The notes: a model not told the origin generated them from the letters alone. 62,563 nt of DNA from Candidatus Levybacteria bacterium RIFCSPLOWO2_02_FULL_37_18 (GCA_001784115.1 MFPD01000002.1:1-62563); one strand, 5' to 3'; counted from the stretch's first letter, positions 45,782-62,563 are shown. Numbers and translations: made by a program.

Positions 45782-46318
45782 ATGACAGTTCAATCTCCAG
45801 ACAGTACACCTAATTACGAACAATTTGCGAAATTCGGCATTATTCTCAATAGGGTGTTACAACCACTGTCAGAGCGTAAAAGAGATGGCGCGCTGACGGC
45901 AATAGAACAAATGCGAACATATGTGAGGGATGTAAGTGATGTTTTTGGGAAACAATGCCCACAGGTACTTGTCATTGCTCTCCATGAGATTTTTTTAGAC
46001 AATGGTTTTCGAGAAAAACCTATTGTACATTTTAAATACGAAGACACGGAAGGAAACGGCGATTCTTCGGAAGGAAGATATTCGACTTCGTGGGAAGATA
46101 CAGCCCGCGATGCACTAAGAGATCAAAATGATTTTGGGAGGGCGAAGAGTGCTGTTGACGCATTACATGGAGCTGTAAACACTCTTAGGAGAGTAGACGG
46201 AATAAGTATTCAAGGTGCCGCAGACATTACAGTTGCCGTGTTGGGTAAAGAGCTAAATCCCCGACCCGCTCCTCTTTATAGTTTTAGCGCAAGAGTCGAA
46301 CCACCCTCTCTGGCATAG
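45782..46318 (+). CDS. hypothetical protein
   Basis: ORF preceded by TTGACT-16-TAGTAT. Confidence 0.6.
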   Translation: MTVQSPDSTPNYEQFAKFGIILNRVLQPLSERKRDGALTAIEQMRTYVRDVSDVFGKQCPQVLVIALHEIFLDNGFREKPIVHFKYEDTEGNGDSSEGRYSTSWEDTARDALRDQNDFGRAKSAVDALHGAVNTLRRVDGISIQGAADITVAVLGKELNPRPAPLYSFSARVEPPSLA

Positions 46319-51249: not shown

Positions 51250-51267
51250 TTTTTTAAGATTCAATCT

Positions 51268-51726
51268 CTAGTATTCAATCTCCAGTCTTGAAAATCGTTT
51301 TAAAACAATATTTTCCCCTAATTTCGCGATTGTTTCCTTTATTAAGTCTTGAGCTGTTTTTGAACTGTCACGGATGTATTCTTGTTTAAGTAAAGTTTTA
51401 ACGTCTTTTGGGTTCATTGCAGACACTTGCAGCGCAATTTCATGAGCCAAATGTTTGAACTCATCTGTCCTTGCAACAAAATCAGTCTCGCACAATAGTT
51501 CCACAAGAACTCCGATGCGGCCATTTGCGTGAATATAAGACTCTATAATCCCCTGTAAGGTAGTTCTATCTGATTTCTTCTCCGCCTTTTCAATCCCATG
51601 CTTTGCCAGCCACTTGACAGCTCTTTCATAGTCATTATCTGTCTCTTCCAATGCCTTCCGACAATCTGCAATAGAGATTCCTGTTTCTGTCCGAAGCTGT
51701 TTTAGAAGTATTAAATCTGCTGCCAT
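51268..51726 (-). CDS. tsf: elongation factor Ts (short form)
   Basis: LRTETGISIADCRKAL, VELLCETDFVART, LGENI. Confidence 0.95.
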   Translation of the reverse strand: MAADLILLKQLRTETGISIADCRKALEETDNDYERAVKWLAKHGIEKAEKKSDRTTLQGIIESYIHANGRIGVLVELLCETDFVARTDEFKHLAHEIALQVSAMNPKDVKTLLKQEYIRDSSKTAQDLIKETIAKLGENIVLKRFSRLEIEY

Positions 51727-55143: not shown

Positions 55144-55557
55144 TTAACCGAAACTTTTCAACGCCTGTACAAAGGAAAATTTTGTTTTTTCTTTAAATCG
55201 CCCGTCTGCGGTAATGAGTTTGGCTTTCCTTCTTTTGGCAATGACTGCATACAGCATGTCATACACTGAAGTTTTATACTTTTTAGCAAGCTTTCCTTAC
55301 TCAATAAGATCAACTTTTTCTTCTGTAGAAGTACCAAACTGAAGACTATAAAGAAATTCAAGGCTTTTTGTAATTGTCCTACTTGTGGTATCTGATTTTG
55401 TTGCCAAAGCGTTTGCAATTTCAATAAAGGCAAATTTTGGAACAACTATCTGCTCTTCTCCACGTTTAAACTTTTCGAACAAAAATAATGCAGGCTCACT
55501 TTCTTCTTCATCCGGTTTGACCCATTTAAAAATGACCGATGCATCAACTACAATCAT
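55144..55557 (-). pseudogene. PIN/VapC toxin with in-frame TAA at 55297-55299
   Basis: IVVDASV..E..NAL; the frame continues past the stop as GKLAKKYKTSVYDMLYAVIA..LITAD. Confidence 0.85.
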
Positions 55558-55799
55558 TATTCGTAGCGCATTTCAATAAGTGCTTTAGTGAGATTGCGTC
55601 CTTTGTTCTCTTTTATCATTGCCTTTTGAATTTCCAAAAGATCTTTATCAAGCTTTACCTCTTTATTTTTATACTTTTTTTTAGGTAAAACTCTTTCACG
55701 AATAATAGCGGCAACACTTTTTCTTTTTTTTGCTGCTTCCATTTTTAATTCCATATATTCTTCTTCGGGAAACCGAATGTTGGTAGTAATCCAATTCAT
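55557..55799 (-). CDS. ribbon-helix-helix antitoxin
   Basis: TTNIRFPEEEY..KSVAAIIRE; TAATG coupling to the toxin; TACAAT 6 nt upstream. Confidence 0.8.
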   Translation of the reverse strand: MNWITTNIRFPEEEYMELKMEAAKKRKSVAAIIRERVLPKKKYKNKEVKLDKDLLEIQKAMIKENKGRNLTKALIEMRYE

Positions 55800-55918
55800 A
55801 GTATGATTGTACAATGATACTAAAAACCTGTCAAAATGGAAAGAGGTTCTGTTTACTATAAGTTATTGACATTGGAATACCCCGGTGATATTCTTCCCGT
55901 TATCACTGTCCAAACGAT

Positions 55919-56874: not shown

Positions 56875-57806
56875 ATGACAGAAACACGATTAGCCCGACA
56901 AATGGGAGCAGTAGACGTTCAAGGAACAGGATAACCTGATGCTAGGATTGGATTTACTCCCCAAGGCCTTATAGAAGCTCGGGAAAGAAAAATAATGCAA
57001 GGACAAGTTGCTATTGTAATTGGCGCAAGTCCTGACGGAATCGGCGGAGCAAGTGCCAGGCAACTATCCCTTCTTGGAGCAACTGTTGTGACCAGTTCTC
57101 GAAATAAAGGAGAAGAGTCACAACAAGCAGCTAATGCATTTGCCGCCAAACTAAAAGAAGAAACAGGATCTGAAGTTAACTGGATCCCGACAGATGTAAC
57201 AGATGAAAATTCGGTAAAAGCTCTGATTGATGAAACTATACAAAGATTTGGTCGGATTGATACTGTAAGTTATAAGTCCAGGTGTAAAGGAAGATACTGT
57301 ATTTTGGAGAATGTCAGAAGCACAAATGCCACAAATGCATAGAGTTTTTGAAACAAATTTCTTTGGTCCAATGAGAGTTGTAAAAGCTGTGACAAGCAAA
57401 TTGGTAAGACAAAAAGACGCCGCCTCCTGTGAAGTTTGTTGCTGTCTCAAGTGAATCTTCAATTGGAGCTCCGGGACAGGCAAATTACAGTGGATCAAAA
57501 GCAGCTTTAAATGCTGCTTTCCAATCCTGCATTCATGATATTGAATGGACTAGGCAAATGTTCCCTCATGTAAATGCAAGATTCAACATTGTTTCTCCGG
57601 GACTTACTAATACACCAATGGTTAAATCAGAAATAGAAGATGATGCAAAAAGGTAAATGATACTTGATTGGTCTCATGCGGATAGAGTTATGCCTCCATA
57701 CGAAGCAGGACAAGTGGTTGCATACCTTGCCTCCCCTGCGTCTGGTGATATTAATGGTCAAGTTGTTTCAGTAATAGGAAAAGGCGAAAACCCACCTGCT
57801 GATTAA
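56875..57806 (+). pseudogene. FabG-like SDR oxidoreductase with two in-frame stops and two frameshifts
   Basis: VIGASPDGIG, FGRIDT, NFFG, NYSGSK (YxxxK), VSPG, GQV; TAA at 56932 and 57654; extra base near 57268 and near 57420. Confidence 0.8.
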
Positions 57807-57826
57807 TCTCCTGCCTAATAGTATGG

Positions 57827-58702
57827 ATGATGAAGATTTTTGTTTTTAAATGAGTCGTCAAATTAGGATATCTCCAGGAAGTGTTAGATACTTTTGGTCC
57901 AGATAATCTTAATGCGAATGTTTGGCAAGATGTGCCAAATCCAGATTCTCCATTTTTTACCAACACTGCCTTTGTGCAGCCGCTGGTGTATACTCTTTCC
58001 GACCTGGCCGCTGAACTAACAACAGAGACTTTGCAAAGAAGAAATATCACTCCTATTTTTGTGGCCGGGCATAGCCTTGGCGAATACGAAGCGGCAACAA
58101 AAGCAGGATGTGTAACCCGCCTTCAAGGCTTAGAAATTGTTGCGTTTCGAGGAAGAATCATGCAGGAAGCTTCAGTCGAAAATCCGAGTAAATTAGTGAG
58201 CATTTTGGGTATGTCTGAAGATGAAGTAAGACGGACAATCTGCACAAGAATTGAAAGTGAAATTGCTTTAGTAAAAGCTCCTACATGTATTGTTATAGGA
58301 ACTTCAAAGGATACACCTACTTAAGACATCGAAGTTATTGCCAAAGAAAATGGAAACAGACGAGTAACTGAATTAGATACTGCGGGAGCTTTTCACACGT
58401 CTTTTATGAACAAAGCAGCTTGGAGGTTGGAAGAATTTTTAAGACGCTACCCTTTTGCAGACGCAGGCCTACCTTTTGTTGGCAATTTCAGCGGAACTTC
58501 TACTACCAAAGGCAACCAGATAAAAAAGCAACTAATAGGTGTTATGACACAAACAGCCCTGTGATCTGATGTATTACAAACAATAAAACAAGAAGATGCA
58601 AAGTTATTTGTAGAACTTGGCCCTGGCAATTCTTTTGCGTCTTTAAACAAAATAAATGGCATAGACCCAAGTACAACAATAGCAACTGCAGATTTATTCT
58701 AA
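57827..58702 (+). pseudogene. FabD-like malonyl/acyltransferase with in-frame stops
   Basis: VQP, GHSLGE, RGRIMQ, GAFH, VELGPG; stops at 57851, 58322 and 58561. Confidence 0.8.
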
Positions 58703-58799
58703 ATCCATTTCGTTTTCCCCAGTTACCCAGTTACTCTGCCTGCAATTTCCCTGGCTTTTTGCAGAAACCCGAAACTCCACCACAAAATTCAGTACATCA

Positions 58800-58824
58800 A
58801 TACGCTATAGCAGACTATTGTAAT
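58800..58824. repeat. direct repeat, left copy
   Basis: ATACGCTATAGCAGACTATTGTAAT (22/25 identical to 59457-59481). Confidence 0.8.
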
Positions 58825-58834
58825 TTTTAAAATT

Positions 58835-58894
58835 ATGAATTACTATTCTTACGGTATTACTACTACTAATAATAATAATAATAATAATTTCTAG
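58835..58894 (+). other. poly-Asn uORF / AAT microsatellite
   Basis: ATG..(ACT)3(AAT)7 TTC TAG, in frame with the downstream ATG at 58898. Confidence 0.45.
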
Positions 58895-58897
58895 AAA

Positions 58898-59467
58898 ATG
58901 AGTGCGGAAAAGACTAAGATCAGAACCCAAGATATCCTTAAAGTACTTGCAGCTTCGGGAATAATTTCTCTTACTCTCATTGCCCCCAGCATACCATTTG
59001 CACTTATGCAATTCTACAAATCTTGGAAGAAAGCGAACTCTGCGGATATTGGAAGAATTATAAAGCGTCTCCAAAAACAAGAAATGATTTCTATCCAGGA
59101 AAATAAGGATAGTATAACTATAGAAATTACAGAAAAAGGCAAACACAGAGTTTTGGAATATGATTTTGAGAATATTAAGCGTAAGGCTAAAAAACGTGAC
59201 GGAAAATGGAGACTTATTATTTTTGATATTCCAGAAGGGAAAAAACGAAATAGAGATGCTTTCAGGAAAAAATTGCTGCAACTGGGATGTATTTGGTTAC
59301 AAGATAGTGTCTTTGTGAGTGCTTTTCCATGCAAAGATGAGGTTGATTTCTTAAGCAATTATCTTGAAATATCAGATTATGTAACCGTAGCAGTTGTTGA
59401 AAAAATTGAACGAGGCGAAGAATTACTTTTTAAAAACTTACGTAACTTTGACATTGATACGCTATAG
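58898..59467 (+). CDS. PaaX-like protein (winged helix plus Cas2/VapD-like C-terminal domain)
   Basis: IKRLQKQEMI..ITEKG; WRLIIFDIPE..RDAFRKKL..G..LQDSVF. Confidence 0.8.
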   Translation: MSAEKTKIRTQDILKVLAASGIISLTLIAPSIPFALMQFYKSWKKANSADIGRIIKRLQKQEMISIQENKDSITIEITEKGKHRVLEYDFENIKRKAKKRDGKWRLIIFDIPEGKKRNRDAFRKKLLQLGCIWLQDSVFVSAFPCKDEVDFLSNYLEISDYVTVAVVEKIERGEELLFKNLRNFDIDTL

Positions 59468-59481
59468 CGTAATATTGTAAT
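59457..59481. repeat. direct repeat, right copy (contains the stop codon; palindromic core TACGCTATAGCGTA)
   Basis: ATACGCTATAGCGTAATATTGTAAT. Confidence 0.8.
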
Positions 59482-59525
59482 AAATGCGACGAGAAATATA
59501 ACTTTATCCTAACTTTAATTTACAA

Positions 59526-60872
59526 CTATGGCAGAGGGTATTTGCAAGCAAGTGAAATTACTTCCCGGTTAATTCGAAGAAGGGTTTTGTTTTTCCAGAC
59601 TTTTGTCCTGAAATCCTTCCAAAATGCGCTTCTTGCTTCTTTTATGGTGAGCTTGTCGAATCCATTTTTCTCAGGAAACTTTTCTGTGCTAACCGCTTCG
59701 ATTGTCTGATGAATCCACTTGGCCACTTTTTTCATTTCCCTTTCTTTGAGTCCACGGGTTGTAATAGCCGGAGTTCCCAAACGGATTCCCGATGGATAAA
59801 ATGGCGGCATTGGGTCATTTGGCACTGCGTTCTTGTTTAGAACTATTCCTGAAACTTCCAAAGCCAAAGCTGCAACAGCGCCGTTTACTCCTTTATTTTG
59901 TAAATCAATCAAAAGCAAATGATTATCTGTACCTCCTGAAGAAAGATTGAAGCCGTATTTAATGAGTTCGTCAGCCAAAACTCTTGCATTCTTTACTATT
60001 TGTTTTCCATAAACTCTAAACTTTAGGGTAGCAGCTTCCTTTAAAGCAACTGCTATGGCTGCTGTCTGATTATCATGCGGACCTCCTTGCAAACCTGGAA
60101 AGACTGCCTTATCAACTTTATCTGCTAATTCCGGGTCTTTTTTTAGTCCTTTTTGGGTTACCATTATCATAGCTCCTCTTGGGCCACGAAGTGTTTTATG
60201 GGTTGTGGTCATAATAATATGAGCGTATGGAACAGGACTTGGATGCACTCCGGCAATGATTAAACCAGTTATATGAGAAATATCTGCAAGTAAGTATGCT
60301 CCGACTTTGTCTGCAATCTGGCCAAATTTTTTAAAATCAATAATTCTTGGATATGCTGTTGCACCGCAGACAATTATTTTTGGCTTATGAAATTTAGCTA
60401 AACGTTCAATTTCTGCAAAATCCAAATACCCTTTCTTATCAAGAGTATAAGAAACAATGGGAAAATATTTTCCTGAAAAAGATACGGGCGAACCATGAGT
60501 AAGATGTCCGCCAAAAGCCAAAGATAATCCCATAATTTTGTCTTTGAATGGTTCTAAAAGAGCAAAATACACAGCGGTGTTTGCAGGACTACCTGAATAT
60601 GGCTGAACATTGACATGCACAACACCGAACAATTTTTTTGCTCGTTCTTCTGCTAAAAGCTCTATGTCATCGATTACCCTATTTCCCTGGTAATACCGTT
60701 TCTTCGCGTACCCTTCTGAATATTTGTTTGTTAACTCATTTCCTAAAGCTTCCATAACAGCGCCCGAGGCATAATTTTCCGAGGGAATCATTTCCAAGAC
60801 TTCCCTTTGTCTTTTTTGTTCTTCTAAAACGAGTTTATGAACCTGCGGATCTGTCTGTTTTAACTGCTTCAT
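59526..60872 (-). CDS. glyA: serine hydroxymethyltransferase
   Basis: IPSENYAS, NKYSEGY, GGHLTHG, TTTHKTLRGPRG, GIRLGTPA. Confidence 0.97.
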   Translation of the reverse strand: MKQLKQTDPQVHKLVLEEQKRQREVLEMIPSENYASGAVMEALGNELTNKYSEGYAKKRYYQGNRVIDDIELLAEERAKKLFGVVHVNVQPYSGSPANTAVYFALLEPFKDKIMGLSLAFGGHLTHGSPVSFSGKYFPIVSYTLDKKGYLDFAEIERLAKFHKPKIIVCGATAYPRIIDFKKFGQIADKVGAYLLADISHITGLIIAGVHPSPVPYAHIIMTTTHKTLRGPRGAMIMVTQKGLKKDPELADKVDKAVFPGLQGGPHDNQTAAIAVALKEAATLKFRVYGKQIVKNARVLADELIKYGFNLSSGGTDNHLLLIDLQNKGVNGAVAALALEVSGIVLNKNAVPNDPMPPFYPSGIRLGTPAITTRGLKEREMKKVAKWIHQTIEAVSTEKFPEKNGFDKLTIKEARSAFWKDFRTKVWKNKTLLRINREVISLACKYPLP

Positions 60873-61003
60873 AGACAAAGCGATGCTAATATTAAAAGTT
60901 CATGCAAATGATGCTAATAGTTAATTCTTATAATTCGCATGCAATTGGGCAACATTCGTATCGCTCACTATAAAATATTTCTCCCCCATTTGCAACGGGT
61001 AAA

Positions 61004-62563
61004 TTATTTTCCATTCCTATGCTCAGCTGCAATAAAAGCAGCATCACTGGTTACAATTCTATGATTATGCCCATTTACTGAAATATTCTCCCGAAGCCCT
61101 CCTATACTTTGAACATCCTGATCAGCCAGAGCTCTTCCCACAAACATCCTTCTGTCGGCAAAATCCTCAACAACAGAATTTACCGATGCAGGTTTAAATG
61201 TATAATTTGGCTTTCCCTCAACATCTTCTAATCTCCCGGCATTATTAAACCGAGATCTTGCAACATATGGGTTAAAAACCGCTTCTTTCCATATAGTTAT
61301 CGCACTCGCGCTACCGTGATAGGGCTGGGCTACTTTTCCATTTGTGTGCTCAACAAAAAGTCCGCCTGTCTCAATCCCACCCGCAATTCCACGTCTATTT
61401 AAAGAAATTACATCAAGCATTCCAAGCAATGCGCCTATCTCATCTCCTGTTCCGCCTTCTAGTCCGATAGCAGTATTATTAAAATCAGGATCTAAATACA
61501 TTGAGTACAAAAGCTCCAAAGAATTTGCTGTTCCCCCTCCGGCAAGAGATGTACAATTTTCTCCTCCTCCATGCCCAGCCAGCAAAATGTTTACGCCAAT
61601 ATTTGGATACACAAGTTGCTTAGCCTGATATAAATCAACAATTGGCCCAACACAAATGGTAAAATCTTCTCCAACTACCTCCCTTATCCTTCTGGCTGTT
61701 TCAACTGTCCTGTAATCTGTGTTTGTGGTATAGATTCGTACAGATGAACACCCTGCCTTTTTGAATTTTAAAACATCTTTGGCAATTTGTTTCGGGTCTT
61801 CGCATCCAACCGAAATTCCAATTTGGGCAATAACAATTTTTTCTATATCTTTTGGAAGACCATATGATTCTATTGCCTCTTTTGCTTGCTGAAACAGTTT
61901 AATCTGAAGATCCGGATTTTTTACAAATATACTATTTCTTGGAATATCAGACCTCATAAAAGACATGGCAGCTGTAACAAGCACGTCTCGAAAACCGCTA
62001 ACTGGCGGCATCCCGCCAATTGCAAATAAAGAGGATGGCACACCAACACTATTTAAAATAAGTCCTTTTGTTCGCGGTTTTTTTCTGCTCATTTCCCGAT
62101 CGGAAAATATTCTGGTATACCCTAGTTCCTGGGTTGCTGCTGTTTTATGAAAAATCATATTTCCTTCTTTATCTCTTATTACATCAAGCAATTTTTCAAT
62201 TACCAAAGACTGTGTATTGGATCGTTTTGAAATTTGCAAATCTCCACTTACTAAACTTCTTAAATATTCATATACCGCTTCGTTATGAAATTGTAAAAAC
62301 TCCTGTGCTCTGGAAGCCAAAGCAAGCCGAACTGCCTCTTTTCCCATCTGCCAAAAAATTACGTCTCCTTCTTTTGTAAGTTGAAGTCTTCTCGGGTTTC
62401 CATATAAATCAACAGCTTTATCCCATGGAGTAATAATAAGTCCAATGCTTGCAGAGTCTAAGTTAGAAACATATCTTTTAATATGGCCATCTGCATATTG
62501 TATTTCGTAATATGGAGGCATTTTTTCCACTCTAAACTCTGGATTTGGGGTAACTCCGGCAAG
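61004..62563 (-). CDS. highly divergent IMPDH/GMP-reductase-family protein (probably 5'-partial)
   Basis: GHGGGENCTS (compare GIGPGSICTT), LEGG, YHGSAS, VEG; the frame is open to the window edge. Confidence 0.6.
   Translation of the reverse strand, partial: LAGVTPNPEFRVEKMPPYYEIQYADGHIKRYVSNLDSASIGLIITPWDKAVDLYGNPRRLQLTKEGDVIFWQMGKEAVRLALASRAQEFLQFHNEAVYEYLRSLVSGDLQISKRSNTQSLVIEKLLDVIRDKEGNMIFHKTAATQELGYTRIFSDREMSRKKPRTKGLILNSVGVPSSLFAIGGMPPVSGFRDVLVTAAMSFMRSDIPRNSIFVKNPDLQIKLFQQAKEAIESYGLPKDIEKIVIAQIGISVGCEDPKQIAKDVLKFKKAGCSSVRIYTTNTDYRTVETARRIREVVGEDFTICVGPIVDLYQAKQLVYPNIGVNILLAGHGGGENCTSLAGGGTANSLELLYSMYLDPDFNNTAIGLEGGTGDEIGALLGMLDVISLNRRGIAGGIETGGLFVEHTNGKVAQPYHGSASAITIWKEAVFNPYVARSRFNNAGRLEDVEGKPNYTFKPASVNSVVEDFADRRMFVGRALADQDVQSIGGLRENISVNGHNHRIVTSDAAFIAAEHRNGK

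Follow-up and report, generated by a model that had tools for sequence, protein, structure and literature searches.

Two palindromic sites bracket a mini-PaaX gene in a Levybacteria genome: a putative self-repressing DNA-binding protein of the Candidate Phyla Radiation

The mini-PaaX locus and its two palindromic sites

The DNA analysed here is a stretch of 62,563 nucleotides from Candidatus Levybacteria bacterium RIFCSPLOWO2_02_FULL_37_18 (GCA_001784115.1, MFPD01000002.1:1-62563), referred to as the window at its whole length. It contains a gene, designated mini-PaaX, that encodes a putative self-repressing DNA-binding protein and is bracketed by two palindromic sites. An earlier note on this DNA had described the gene as lying between 25-bp direct repeats, the right one holding a perfect palindrome and the stop codon, and this description was exact. 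The left copy ATACGCTATAGCAGACTATTGTAAT is found at 58800-58824 and the right copy ATACGCTATAGCGTAATATTGTAAT at 59457-59481, with 22 of 25 positions identical. The perfect palindrome TACGCTATAGCGTA (59458-59471) is contained in the downstream copy, and the TAG stop codon of the gene (59465-59467) is localized at its centre. The features of the locus are the following:

58790-58825, no strand: upstream palindromic site, span of 36 nt, centre between 58807 and 58808; core 58794-58821, ACATCAATACGCTATAGCAGACTATTGT
58818-58846, plus strand: predicted promoter, with -35 box TTGTAA at 58818-58823 (right arm of the site), spacer of 17 nt and -10 box TACTAT at 58841-58846
58836-58895, plus strand: lineage-specific leader, an upstream open reading frame (ORF) of 19 codons (ATG...TAG) with (AAT)7 at 58868-58888
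58898-59467, plus strand: mini-PaaX gene, 189 amino acids, bracketed by both palindromes
59447-59482, no strand: downstream palindromic site, span of 36 nt, centre between 59464 and 59465; core 59451-59478, ACATTGATACGCTATAGCGTAATATTGT
59526-60878, minus strand: glyA (serine hydroxymethyltransferase), convergent neighbour outside the module

The match between the two copies grows to 31 nt (58794-58824 versus 59451-59481, 26/31 identical), and a gapped extension beyond about 31 nt is not significant (score of 23, the shuffles reaching 27 at most). When up to three mismatches were allowed, no further copy was detected in the window beyond these two, and none in 100 shuffles. Each copy is an imperfect palindrome of 28-36 bp with the core ACA-N22-TGT and the centre GCTATAGC. 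Over 36 nt the copies are identical at 26 positions in direct register and at 23 positions in inverted register; these values are close because both copies are themselves imperfect palindromes. The upstream site occupies an equal position in the orthologous loci L001-L018.

The mini-PaaX protein and its family

The protein is composed of a winged helix, with the recognition helix at residues 48-60 and the wing at residues 64-77, followed by a Cas2-like PaaX_M domain (residues 101-172). The family PF20803 (PaaX_M, Cas2-like) matches residues 98-172 with an E-value of 3.6e-21 and 75.5 bits, against a cut-off of 24. The Cas2 signature is passed marginally and only in part (residues 104-141), by PF09827 (6.5e-07; 29.9 versus 23.8 bits) and by TIGR01573 (25.9 versus 24.5 bits), and the PADLOC Cas2 models match the protein down to 7e-08. 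The N-terminal winged helix of PaaX (PF07848) gave no match at E<=1, although the profile alignment to the PaaX structure 8A39 still covers the recognition helix and the wing. A search of the PDB with the family profile retrieved this same E. coli PaaX structure, with an alignment running from the recognition helix across the Cas2-like domain. In the AlphaFold2 model (predicted local distance difference test, pLDDT, of 83), three helices and a wing of two strands are followed by a linker helix and a ferredoxin-like domain. Foldseek again ranks 8A39 first for this model (181 columns); Cas2 proteins and MarR/PadR winged helices come next.

The phenylacetyl-CoA-sensing domain PaaX_C (PF08223) was not found in the protein, which ends at residue 189 directly after the middle domain, and its score for the PaaX equivalog TIGR02277, 25.7 bits, stays below the cut-off of 264.55. 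The term mini-PaaX is used here for such a protein, with a winged helix joined to the Cas2-like middle domain of PaaX and without the PaaX C-terminal domain. The earlier note had recognized a Cas2-like domain with the motif FDIPE...LQDSVF beside the winged helix; this part stands, but the motif belongs to the middle domain of PaaX and not to its C-terminus. The note had also set the gene apart from phenylacetate catabolism, in agreement with the missing ligand domain and with neighbours represented by glyA and by what looks like a decaying fatty-acid synthesis (fab) cluster.

PaaX itself is the phenylacetyl-CoA-responsive repressor of the paa operons, with resolved structures from E. coli W (8A39) and Jannaschia (3L09) and the architecture PF07848, PF20803 and PF08223. 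Its recognition sequence is TGATTC-N27-GAATCA, and it represses its own promoter by sterically blocking the RNA polymerase (PMC9493321). The mini-PaaX protein shares with it the succession of a winged helix and a Cas2-like middle domain, the signature WDGKW, and a long spaced palindrome at its own promoter, here a palindrome of 28-36 bp that lies over the predicted promoter. It differs from PaaX by its length (189 residues without PaaX_C, instead of about 305-316 with it) and by the absence of paa genes, by a hydrophobic N-terminal segment, by an additional conserved central core in the site and by a second site at the 3′ end of the gene. Moreover, the mini-PaaX family is confined to the Candidate Phyla Radiation (CPR), often with several paralogs per genome.

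The Cas2-like domain has in common with Cas2 and VapD the ferredoxin-like fold, the motif composed of a hydrophobic strand and FDI...R..L...G...LQxSVF, and the aspartate at the catalytic position of Cas2. This residue, Asp110, is invariant in the mini-PaaX family. The flanking, partly palindromic repeats of 28-36 bp are also in the size range of CRISPR repeats. Contrary to Cas2, which is a stand-alone protein of about 90-110 residues encoded beside cas1 and a CRISPR array, mini-PaaX is a winged-helix fusion of 189 residues, with neither cas1 nor a CRISPR array adjacent to it in the window or in 17 orthologue loci, and its two repeats enclose a gene of 650 bp instead of a spacer.

Two other segments of the protein are distinctive. 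The N-terminal segment of residues ~13-38 (58940-59010) is hydrophobic, with a mean Kyte-Doolittle value over 19 residues of 1.85 for residues 16-34. A strongly hydrophobic segment is also present in 50 of 64 relatives, with a nearly invariant proline at position 30; it may act as a membrane anchor, or as a re-entrant hairpin, on a DNA-binding protein. At the other end, the C-terminal tail is disordered in the model (pLDDT below 50); its codons lie in the left arm of the downstream site. The tail ...DWDNDTL, conserved in close orthologues, corresponds to this arm read in frame.

A profile search of 1.84 billion representative sequences recovered 1,419 clusters (50% identity) at E<=1e-30. Close relatives, with 60-73% identity, are abundant in groundwater metagenomes, and those with a name come from Levybacteria, Daviesbacteria and other Patescibacteria. 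The family is thus large, and it is widely mis-annotated: some relatives are described as Cas2 ('CRISPR-associated endonuclease Cas2' in the Prokaryotic Genome Annotation Pipeline, PGAP) and others as a phenylacetate regulator. No relatives were detected in IMG/VR or phage records, and plasmid records contained only distant Streptomyces PaaX proteins. A literature search for PaaX in connection with Cas2-like proteins, the CPR or Saccharibacteria gave no paper, and no published description of the family was found, so that it appears undescribed in the searchable literature. To our knowledge, very few recognizable regulators are present in the CPR (Patescibacteria), and almost nothing is known of their gene control.

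Conservation, recognition and promoter overlap of the sites

The arrangement was compared in 80 homologue loci from species-representative genomes. A convincing pair of matching palindromes was observed in 65 of these 80 loci (27-69% identity), from Microgenomates, Parcubacteria, Saccharibacteria, Berkelbacteria and Doudnabacteria; the flanking repeats that the earlier note had proposed to look for around homologues are therefore present. In these 65 loci the centre of the upstream site is located 17-119 nt 5′ of the ATG, that of the downstream site between -3 and +116 nt relative to the end of the stop codon, and a distance of 548-787 bp separates the two sites. The downstream centre is comprised between -3 and +6 nt from that end in 12 of 15 close orthologues. 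Among 60 long palindromes detected in 628 kb of homologue loci, 46 are at the flanks of a family gene, and 535 kb of these loci contained only two additional copies of the site of the locus concerned.

The centres depend on the lineage (GCTATAGC, CGATCG, CCATGG, CAATTG, CTCGAG, CGGCCG or GCGGTCGC). The arms vary too, reaching beyond ACA/TGT to GGTTACAA/TTGTAACC in relatives, and the geometry is constant. Paralogs in one genome carry different palindromes (L022/L030/L039, L036/L048 and L011/L049), but a gene's own two copies match each other. The position of the stop codon relative to the palindrome shifts among close orthologues, which indicates that the palindrome is conserved as DNA and not as coding sequence. 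In the closest species pairs (L016/L017, L010/L017 and L001/L003), the identity between the two upstream sites and between the two downstream sites (30-35 of 36) exceeds that between upstream and downstream sites of one locus (24-30), so that each site is inherited as its own position. Distant comparisons are reversed, the identity within a locus (26.1) being above that at the same position between species (about 23); over long distances the pair thus follows one shared specificity as it drifts. This evolution is consistent with operators of a co-evolving binder and not with target-site duplications.

These data make it hardly credible that the repeat is a chance match or the functionless leftover 3′ end of a decayed tandem paralog. 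The upstream copy does end in ...ACGCTATAG, resembling the last codons of the gene. Against such an origin stand the absence of matches in the shuffles, the conservation of both copies at both positions across the phylum, the shift of the stop codon relative to the palindrome, and a solo site in L150 that has the same left-arm sequence without any family gene.

The symmetry of the sites was analysed by pairwise complementarity. It reaches 84-98% at the four central pairs, falls to about 55-65% in the spacers, rises again to 75-93% at pairs 11-17 and is at background level beyond pair 20; the site is three-part and symmetric. At non-complementary positions we counted 101 G/T, 117 A/C and 348 other combinations, that is, no excess of wobble pairs. 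The symmetry and the mismatch statistics favour a site in double-stranded DNA over an RNA hairpin. We regard it as quite improbable that the palindromes act as RNA hairpins at the 5′ and 3′ ends of the mRNA, be it as stability elements, as terminators or as targets of a Cas2 fold resembling an RNA recognition motif. All the palindromes can fold, the downstream copy is at the 3′ end of the mRNA, many family sites are perfect palindromes of 36-48 nt with a 4-nt centre, and some Cas2 and VapD proteins are reported to be ribonucleases. However, the spacers are non-complementary in the orthologue group of the window, where the RNA form would be an outer stem of 3 bp across a 6x6 internal loop, and ACA/TGT and C-N4-G are conserved as sequence, beyond mere pairing. 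In addition, no terminator-like T-run was found, and the upstream site overlaps the -35/-10 box, 5′ of a predicted and mostly leaderless transcription start.

The overlap with the promoter recurs in close orthologues: at a distance of 16-18 nt from the right arm TTGT(A/C)(A/C), 12 of 15 loci have a -10 box that matches at four or more of six positions and is mostly of the form TAnnnT, whereas only 19% of control positions reach this value. In the 65 loci the distance between the centre of the site and the ATG clusters at 27-33 nt, with an arm over the -10 box, and at 45-50 nt, with an arm as the -35 box. Both are classical positions of a repressor, and in either case the site is placed upstream of the predicted transcription start. 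A peak of TAnnnT at -12/-13 from the ATG (26 of 65 loci) indicates leaderless mRNAs, and most family members appear to be of this type. The window is atypical in this respect, with a transcription start predicted near 58853 and a predicted leader of about 45 nt, most orthologues being without leader and seemingly leaderless. The upstream ORF of the leader (MNYYSYGITTTNNNNNNNF, followed by its stop) is in frame with the mini-PaaX gene, from which it is separated by TAG-AAA. A second promoter-like sequence, TTGACA-16-TAATAT (10/12), is located at 59448-59475 on the plus strand, inside the downstream site and directed toward the 3′ end of glyA; it is not conserved in orthologues.

A link between protein and site was detected at residue 136, the variable position of LQxSVF in the Cas2-like domain. 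Aspartate at this position is found only with a TATA centre (18 of 18), and all 16 loci with GATC, CATG or AATT centres have lysine or arginine. Among the close orthologues, the three loci with an upstream centre other than TATA (L009, L011 and L012) are the only three without Asp136. This link suggests that a Cas2-like dimer sits on the dyad, with the winged helices reading the arms. If so, it would represent a new, sequence-reading use of the Cas2 fold. The family offers hundreds of natural protein-site pairs for the study of a recognition code, with Asp136-TATA as candidate element.

The sequences themselves, together with how they are conserved and covary, the protein fold and the geometry of the promoter, lead us to infer that mini-PaaX is a self-repressing DNA-binding protein that binds both ends of its gene, at an operator in the promoter and at a second site at the 3′ end, and we consider this explanation reasonably probable. 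The earlier note had named binding of both ends as one of two options. It is favoured by palindromes that are conserved in position and change with the protein in the 65 loci, by the paralog-specific palindromes and by the upstream copy over the predicted core promoter. The protein would be a dimer built like the first two thirds of PaaX, with a winged helix and a Cas2-like dimerization domain. It would bind a three-part palindrome, the two winged helices reading the outer arms with ACA/TGT at about +/-12-14, and the Cas2-like dimer being placed over the central (G)C-N4-G(C) core. As the upstream site overlaps the -35 box of the gene, the bound protein would repress its own transcription.

Several observations weigh against this explanation. 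The promoter of the window is weak (8/12 matches), under the 9/12 threshold of the scan, so that it was not called. The association of Asp136 with TATA is no strict code, an independent set of TATA-centred sites giving aspartate in 10 cases, lysine in five, arginine in one and glutamate in one. A mutual-information scan of protein columns against DNA positions is dominated by phylogeny, and the recognition helix does not stand out in it. A mere dimerization domain would not need the invariant Asp110, and the perfect palindromes of 36-48 bp suit the recognition of a hairpin or a cruciform too. The 3′ site is no promoter operator and is left unexplained by a pure repressor model, and the spacing between the two sites gave no signal of helical phasing (Rayleigh p of 0.16-0.79). 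Finally, the solo sites of metagenome contigs described below exceed the gene-flanking ones (41 versus 21) and show no preference for gene starts, being distributed among seven convergent, seven divergent and six co-oriented intergenic regions.

The 3′ site, solo sites and the question of mobility

The convergent orientation of glyA means that the downstream site precedes no co-oriented gene at the window locus. Over the family, 32 loci have a co-oriented downstream neighbour and 31 a convergent one, with varied functions (rplL, trmD, tRNA_bind, GNAT, AbiTii/DpnII-like and PsbP-like), which argues that the 3′ site belongs to the module and not to the next gene; a role as operator of the next gene was rejected. 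Three functions may be proposed, in order of preference, for a second site bound by mini-PaaX. It could loop to the promoter site as an auxiliary operator, act as a roadblock or insulator that stops read-through where genes are closely packed, or mark the boundary of the module. Textbook models do not account for an invariable second site at a stop codon. The looping repressors (lac O1/O2/O3, gal OE/OI and lambda OL/OR) resemble the module by a promoter operator accompanied by a second cognate site, which is 548-787 bp away in the mini-PaaX family, and the operators of lambda likewise flank the repressor gene itself. They differ in that the second site of mini-PaaX is pinned, family-wide, to the stop codon of the regulator, without detectable helical phasing.

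Sites outside the module were searched for in metagenome contigs with the pattern ACAW-N5-CGCTATAGCG-N5-WTGT. It recovered 126 sites: 21 adjoin a family ORF, and among the 41 robustly solo ones 31 are strongly palindromic. A few further solo sites probably exist in each genome. One solo site with an identical core is located 62-84 nt 5′ of smpB in both L102 (2574) and L158 (1259), the flanks being 86% identical. In L103 (10880-11581), the gene of an IS200-like Y1 transposase begins 45 nt past a solo site, which may be a coincidence. In L120, L134, L162, L173 and L179, a GCTATAGC-centred palindrome forms the centre of a much larger repeated inverted element, probably distinct and present in multiple copies, whose flanks of 100-165 nt are 91-98% alike in either orientation.

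Some sites bracket or accompany other genes. In L094 (1-1000), direct repeats of about 150 nt surround an unrelated ORF of 189 residues adjoining tsf, and these repeats contain the palindromic site and a second hairpin, TCCCACTTG..CAAGTGGGA. The bracketed ORF was considered as a divergent family member and rejected (hhalign probability of 1.6%). In L097 (1650-2950), a pair composed of DUF6922 and AbiEii (type IV toxin-antitoxin) is enclosed by two sites that are 1201 bp apart and belong to a weaker direct repeat, about 130 nt long. In L147, a single site and an NYN-domain gene are found between tsf and frr, a gap (51264-51268) of only 3 bp in the window. The comparison of L094, L147 and the window reads as site-associated gene gain or loss.

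The other option of the earlier note was a cassette that integrates or excises through its repeats in the manner of attL and attR. More generally, the module could be a palindrome-bounded mobile or gain-and-loss element, either a cassette or a unit comparable to the repetitive extragenic palindromes (REP) and their associated tyrosine transposases (RAYT), in which the Cas2-fold protein nicks, cuts or recombines its own palindromes. Through this activity the unit would be excised or inserted, or its palindromes would spread and pick up cargo genes. We judge a mobile element of this type unlikely, but several data speak for it. Solo palindromes are common in all types of intergenic region, palindrome-containing repeats surround cargo in L094 and L097, and a site stands with the NYN-domain gene in L147. 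Orthologues lie in neighbourhoods that vary between lineages, and some genomes contain two or three paralogs. Asp110, at the Cas2 catalytic position, is invariant. A third site is present in L035, 110 nt past the second. In L061, L068, L075 and L047 the central four bases of the two copies are exact reverse complements while the arms are in direct register (upstream versus downstream, GCGACCGC versus GCGGTCGC and GCGCCCGC versus GCGGGCGC), and this inversion could be a flip of a hairpin loop or the trace of a recombination.

On the other hand, close species pairs keep each site as its own orthologous position, without homogenization. The synteny rpsB-tsf-frr-rseP-[gene]-proS and the orientation of the gene are stable across at least five Daviesbacteria genomes. 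No excision, inversion or circle joints at the window repeats were found in the Logan contigs of four metagenome runs that contain this sequence, a weak test since contigs drop rare variants, and no empty allele was found among 200 loci. Viral and phage homologues are lacking in the records searched, those of plasmids being only the distant Streptomyces proteins. The repeat of the window is limited to the 31-nt site and has a low copy number, two in 62.5 kb. The unit holds only the mini-PaaX gene, and no tyrosine or serine recombinase domain was detected in the flanking ORFs. The separate evolution of the sites, the stable synteny and the lack of joints and of viral relatives thus speak against integration or excision of the attL/attR type at the window locus; for the family as a whole, the solo palindromes and the bracketed cargo genes leave some probability to mobility.

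The comparison with REP/RAYT (REPtron) units is instructive in both directions. As in these units, the gene is bracketed by presumed cognate palindromes, and solo intergenic copies also occur. Unlike their product, mini-PaaX is no HUH/Y1 (IS200-like) transposase, the Pfam, NCBIfam and fold searches giving only PaaX_M/Cas2 and the winged helix. REP sequences are present in hundreds of copies; the 62.5 kb of the window contain two copies of the site and the 535 kb of homologue loci two extras, solo copies being common in metagenome contigs. The flanking copies of mini-PaaX are mostly in direct, not inverted, register.

A bolder proposal goes further: the Cas2-fold protein would do more than repress and would nick, cut or transfer strands at the dyad of its palindromes, in duplex or extruded form, as a sequence-specific enzyme or handling factor. 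The palindrome-gene-palindrome units found across the CPR would form a new class of autonomous, palindrome-spreading and cargo-capturing elements. We find this proposal rather doubtful. Were the palindromes processed by the protein, the module would be a small mobile unit of a new kind and would matter for the question of how the CRISPR adaptation machinery arose. As an enzyme, it would represent a REP/RAYT-like partnership built on a Cas2 relative, which bears on the first association of Cas2 with palindromic repeats of about 30-36 bp.

Concerning the remainder of the window, the neighbours of the mini-PaaX gene are the serine hydroxymethyltransferase, a methyltransferase, fabD/fabG fragments and a PIN toxin-antitoxin pair, with no paa genes nearby. 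The fabG-like and fabD-like genes (56995-58702) are split into several short ORFs by stops and frame changes, and the Acyl_transf_1 fragment (57881-58324) stops at an in-frame TAA. The toxin-antitoxin-like pair (55297-55814, minus strand) is composed of a PIN-domain ORF of 85 residues and an overlapping upstream ORF, also of 85 residues; a PIN pair is likewise located just 5′ of the mini-PaaX gene in the homologue locus L035. The ORF at 45782-46318 was considered as a paralog and rejected (hhalign probability of 0.3%, no Pfam match). A match to ACA-N22-TGT at 45999 was discarded as a third site, having an off-register centre and being attributable to chance, with about 0.6 such matches expected. 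Finally, an ORF of 508 residues at 61004-62530 (minus strand) matches no Pfam family at E<=0.001.

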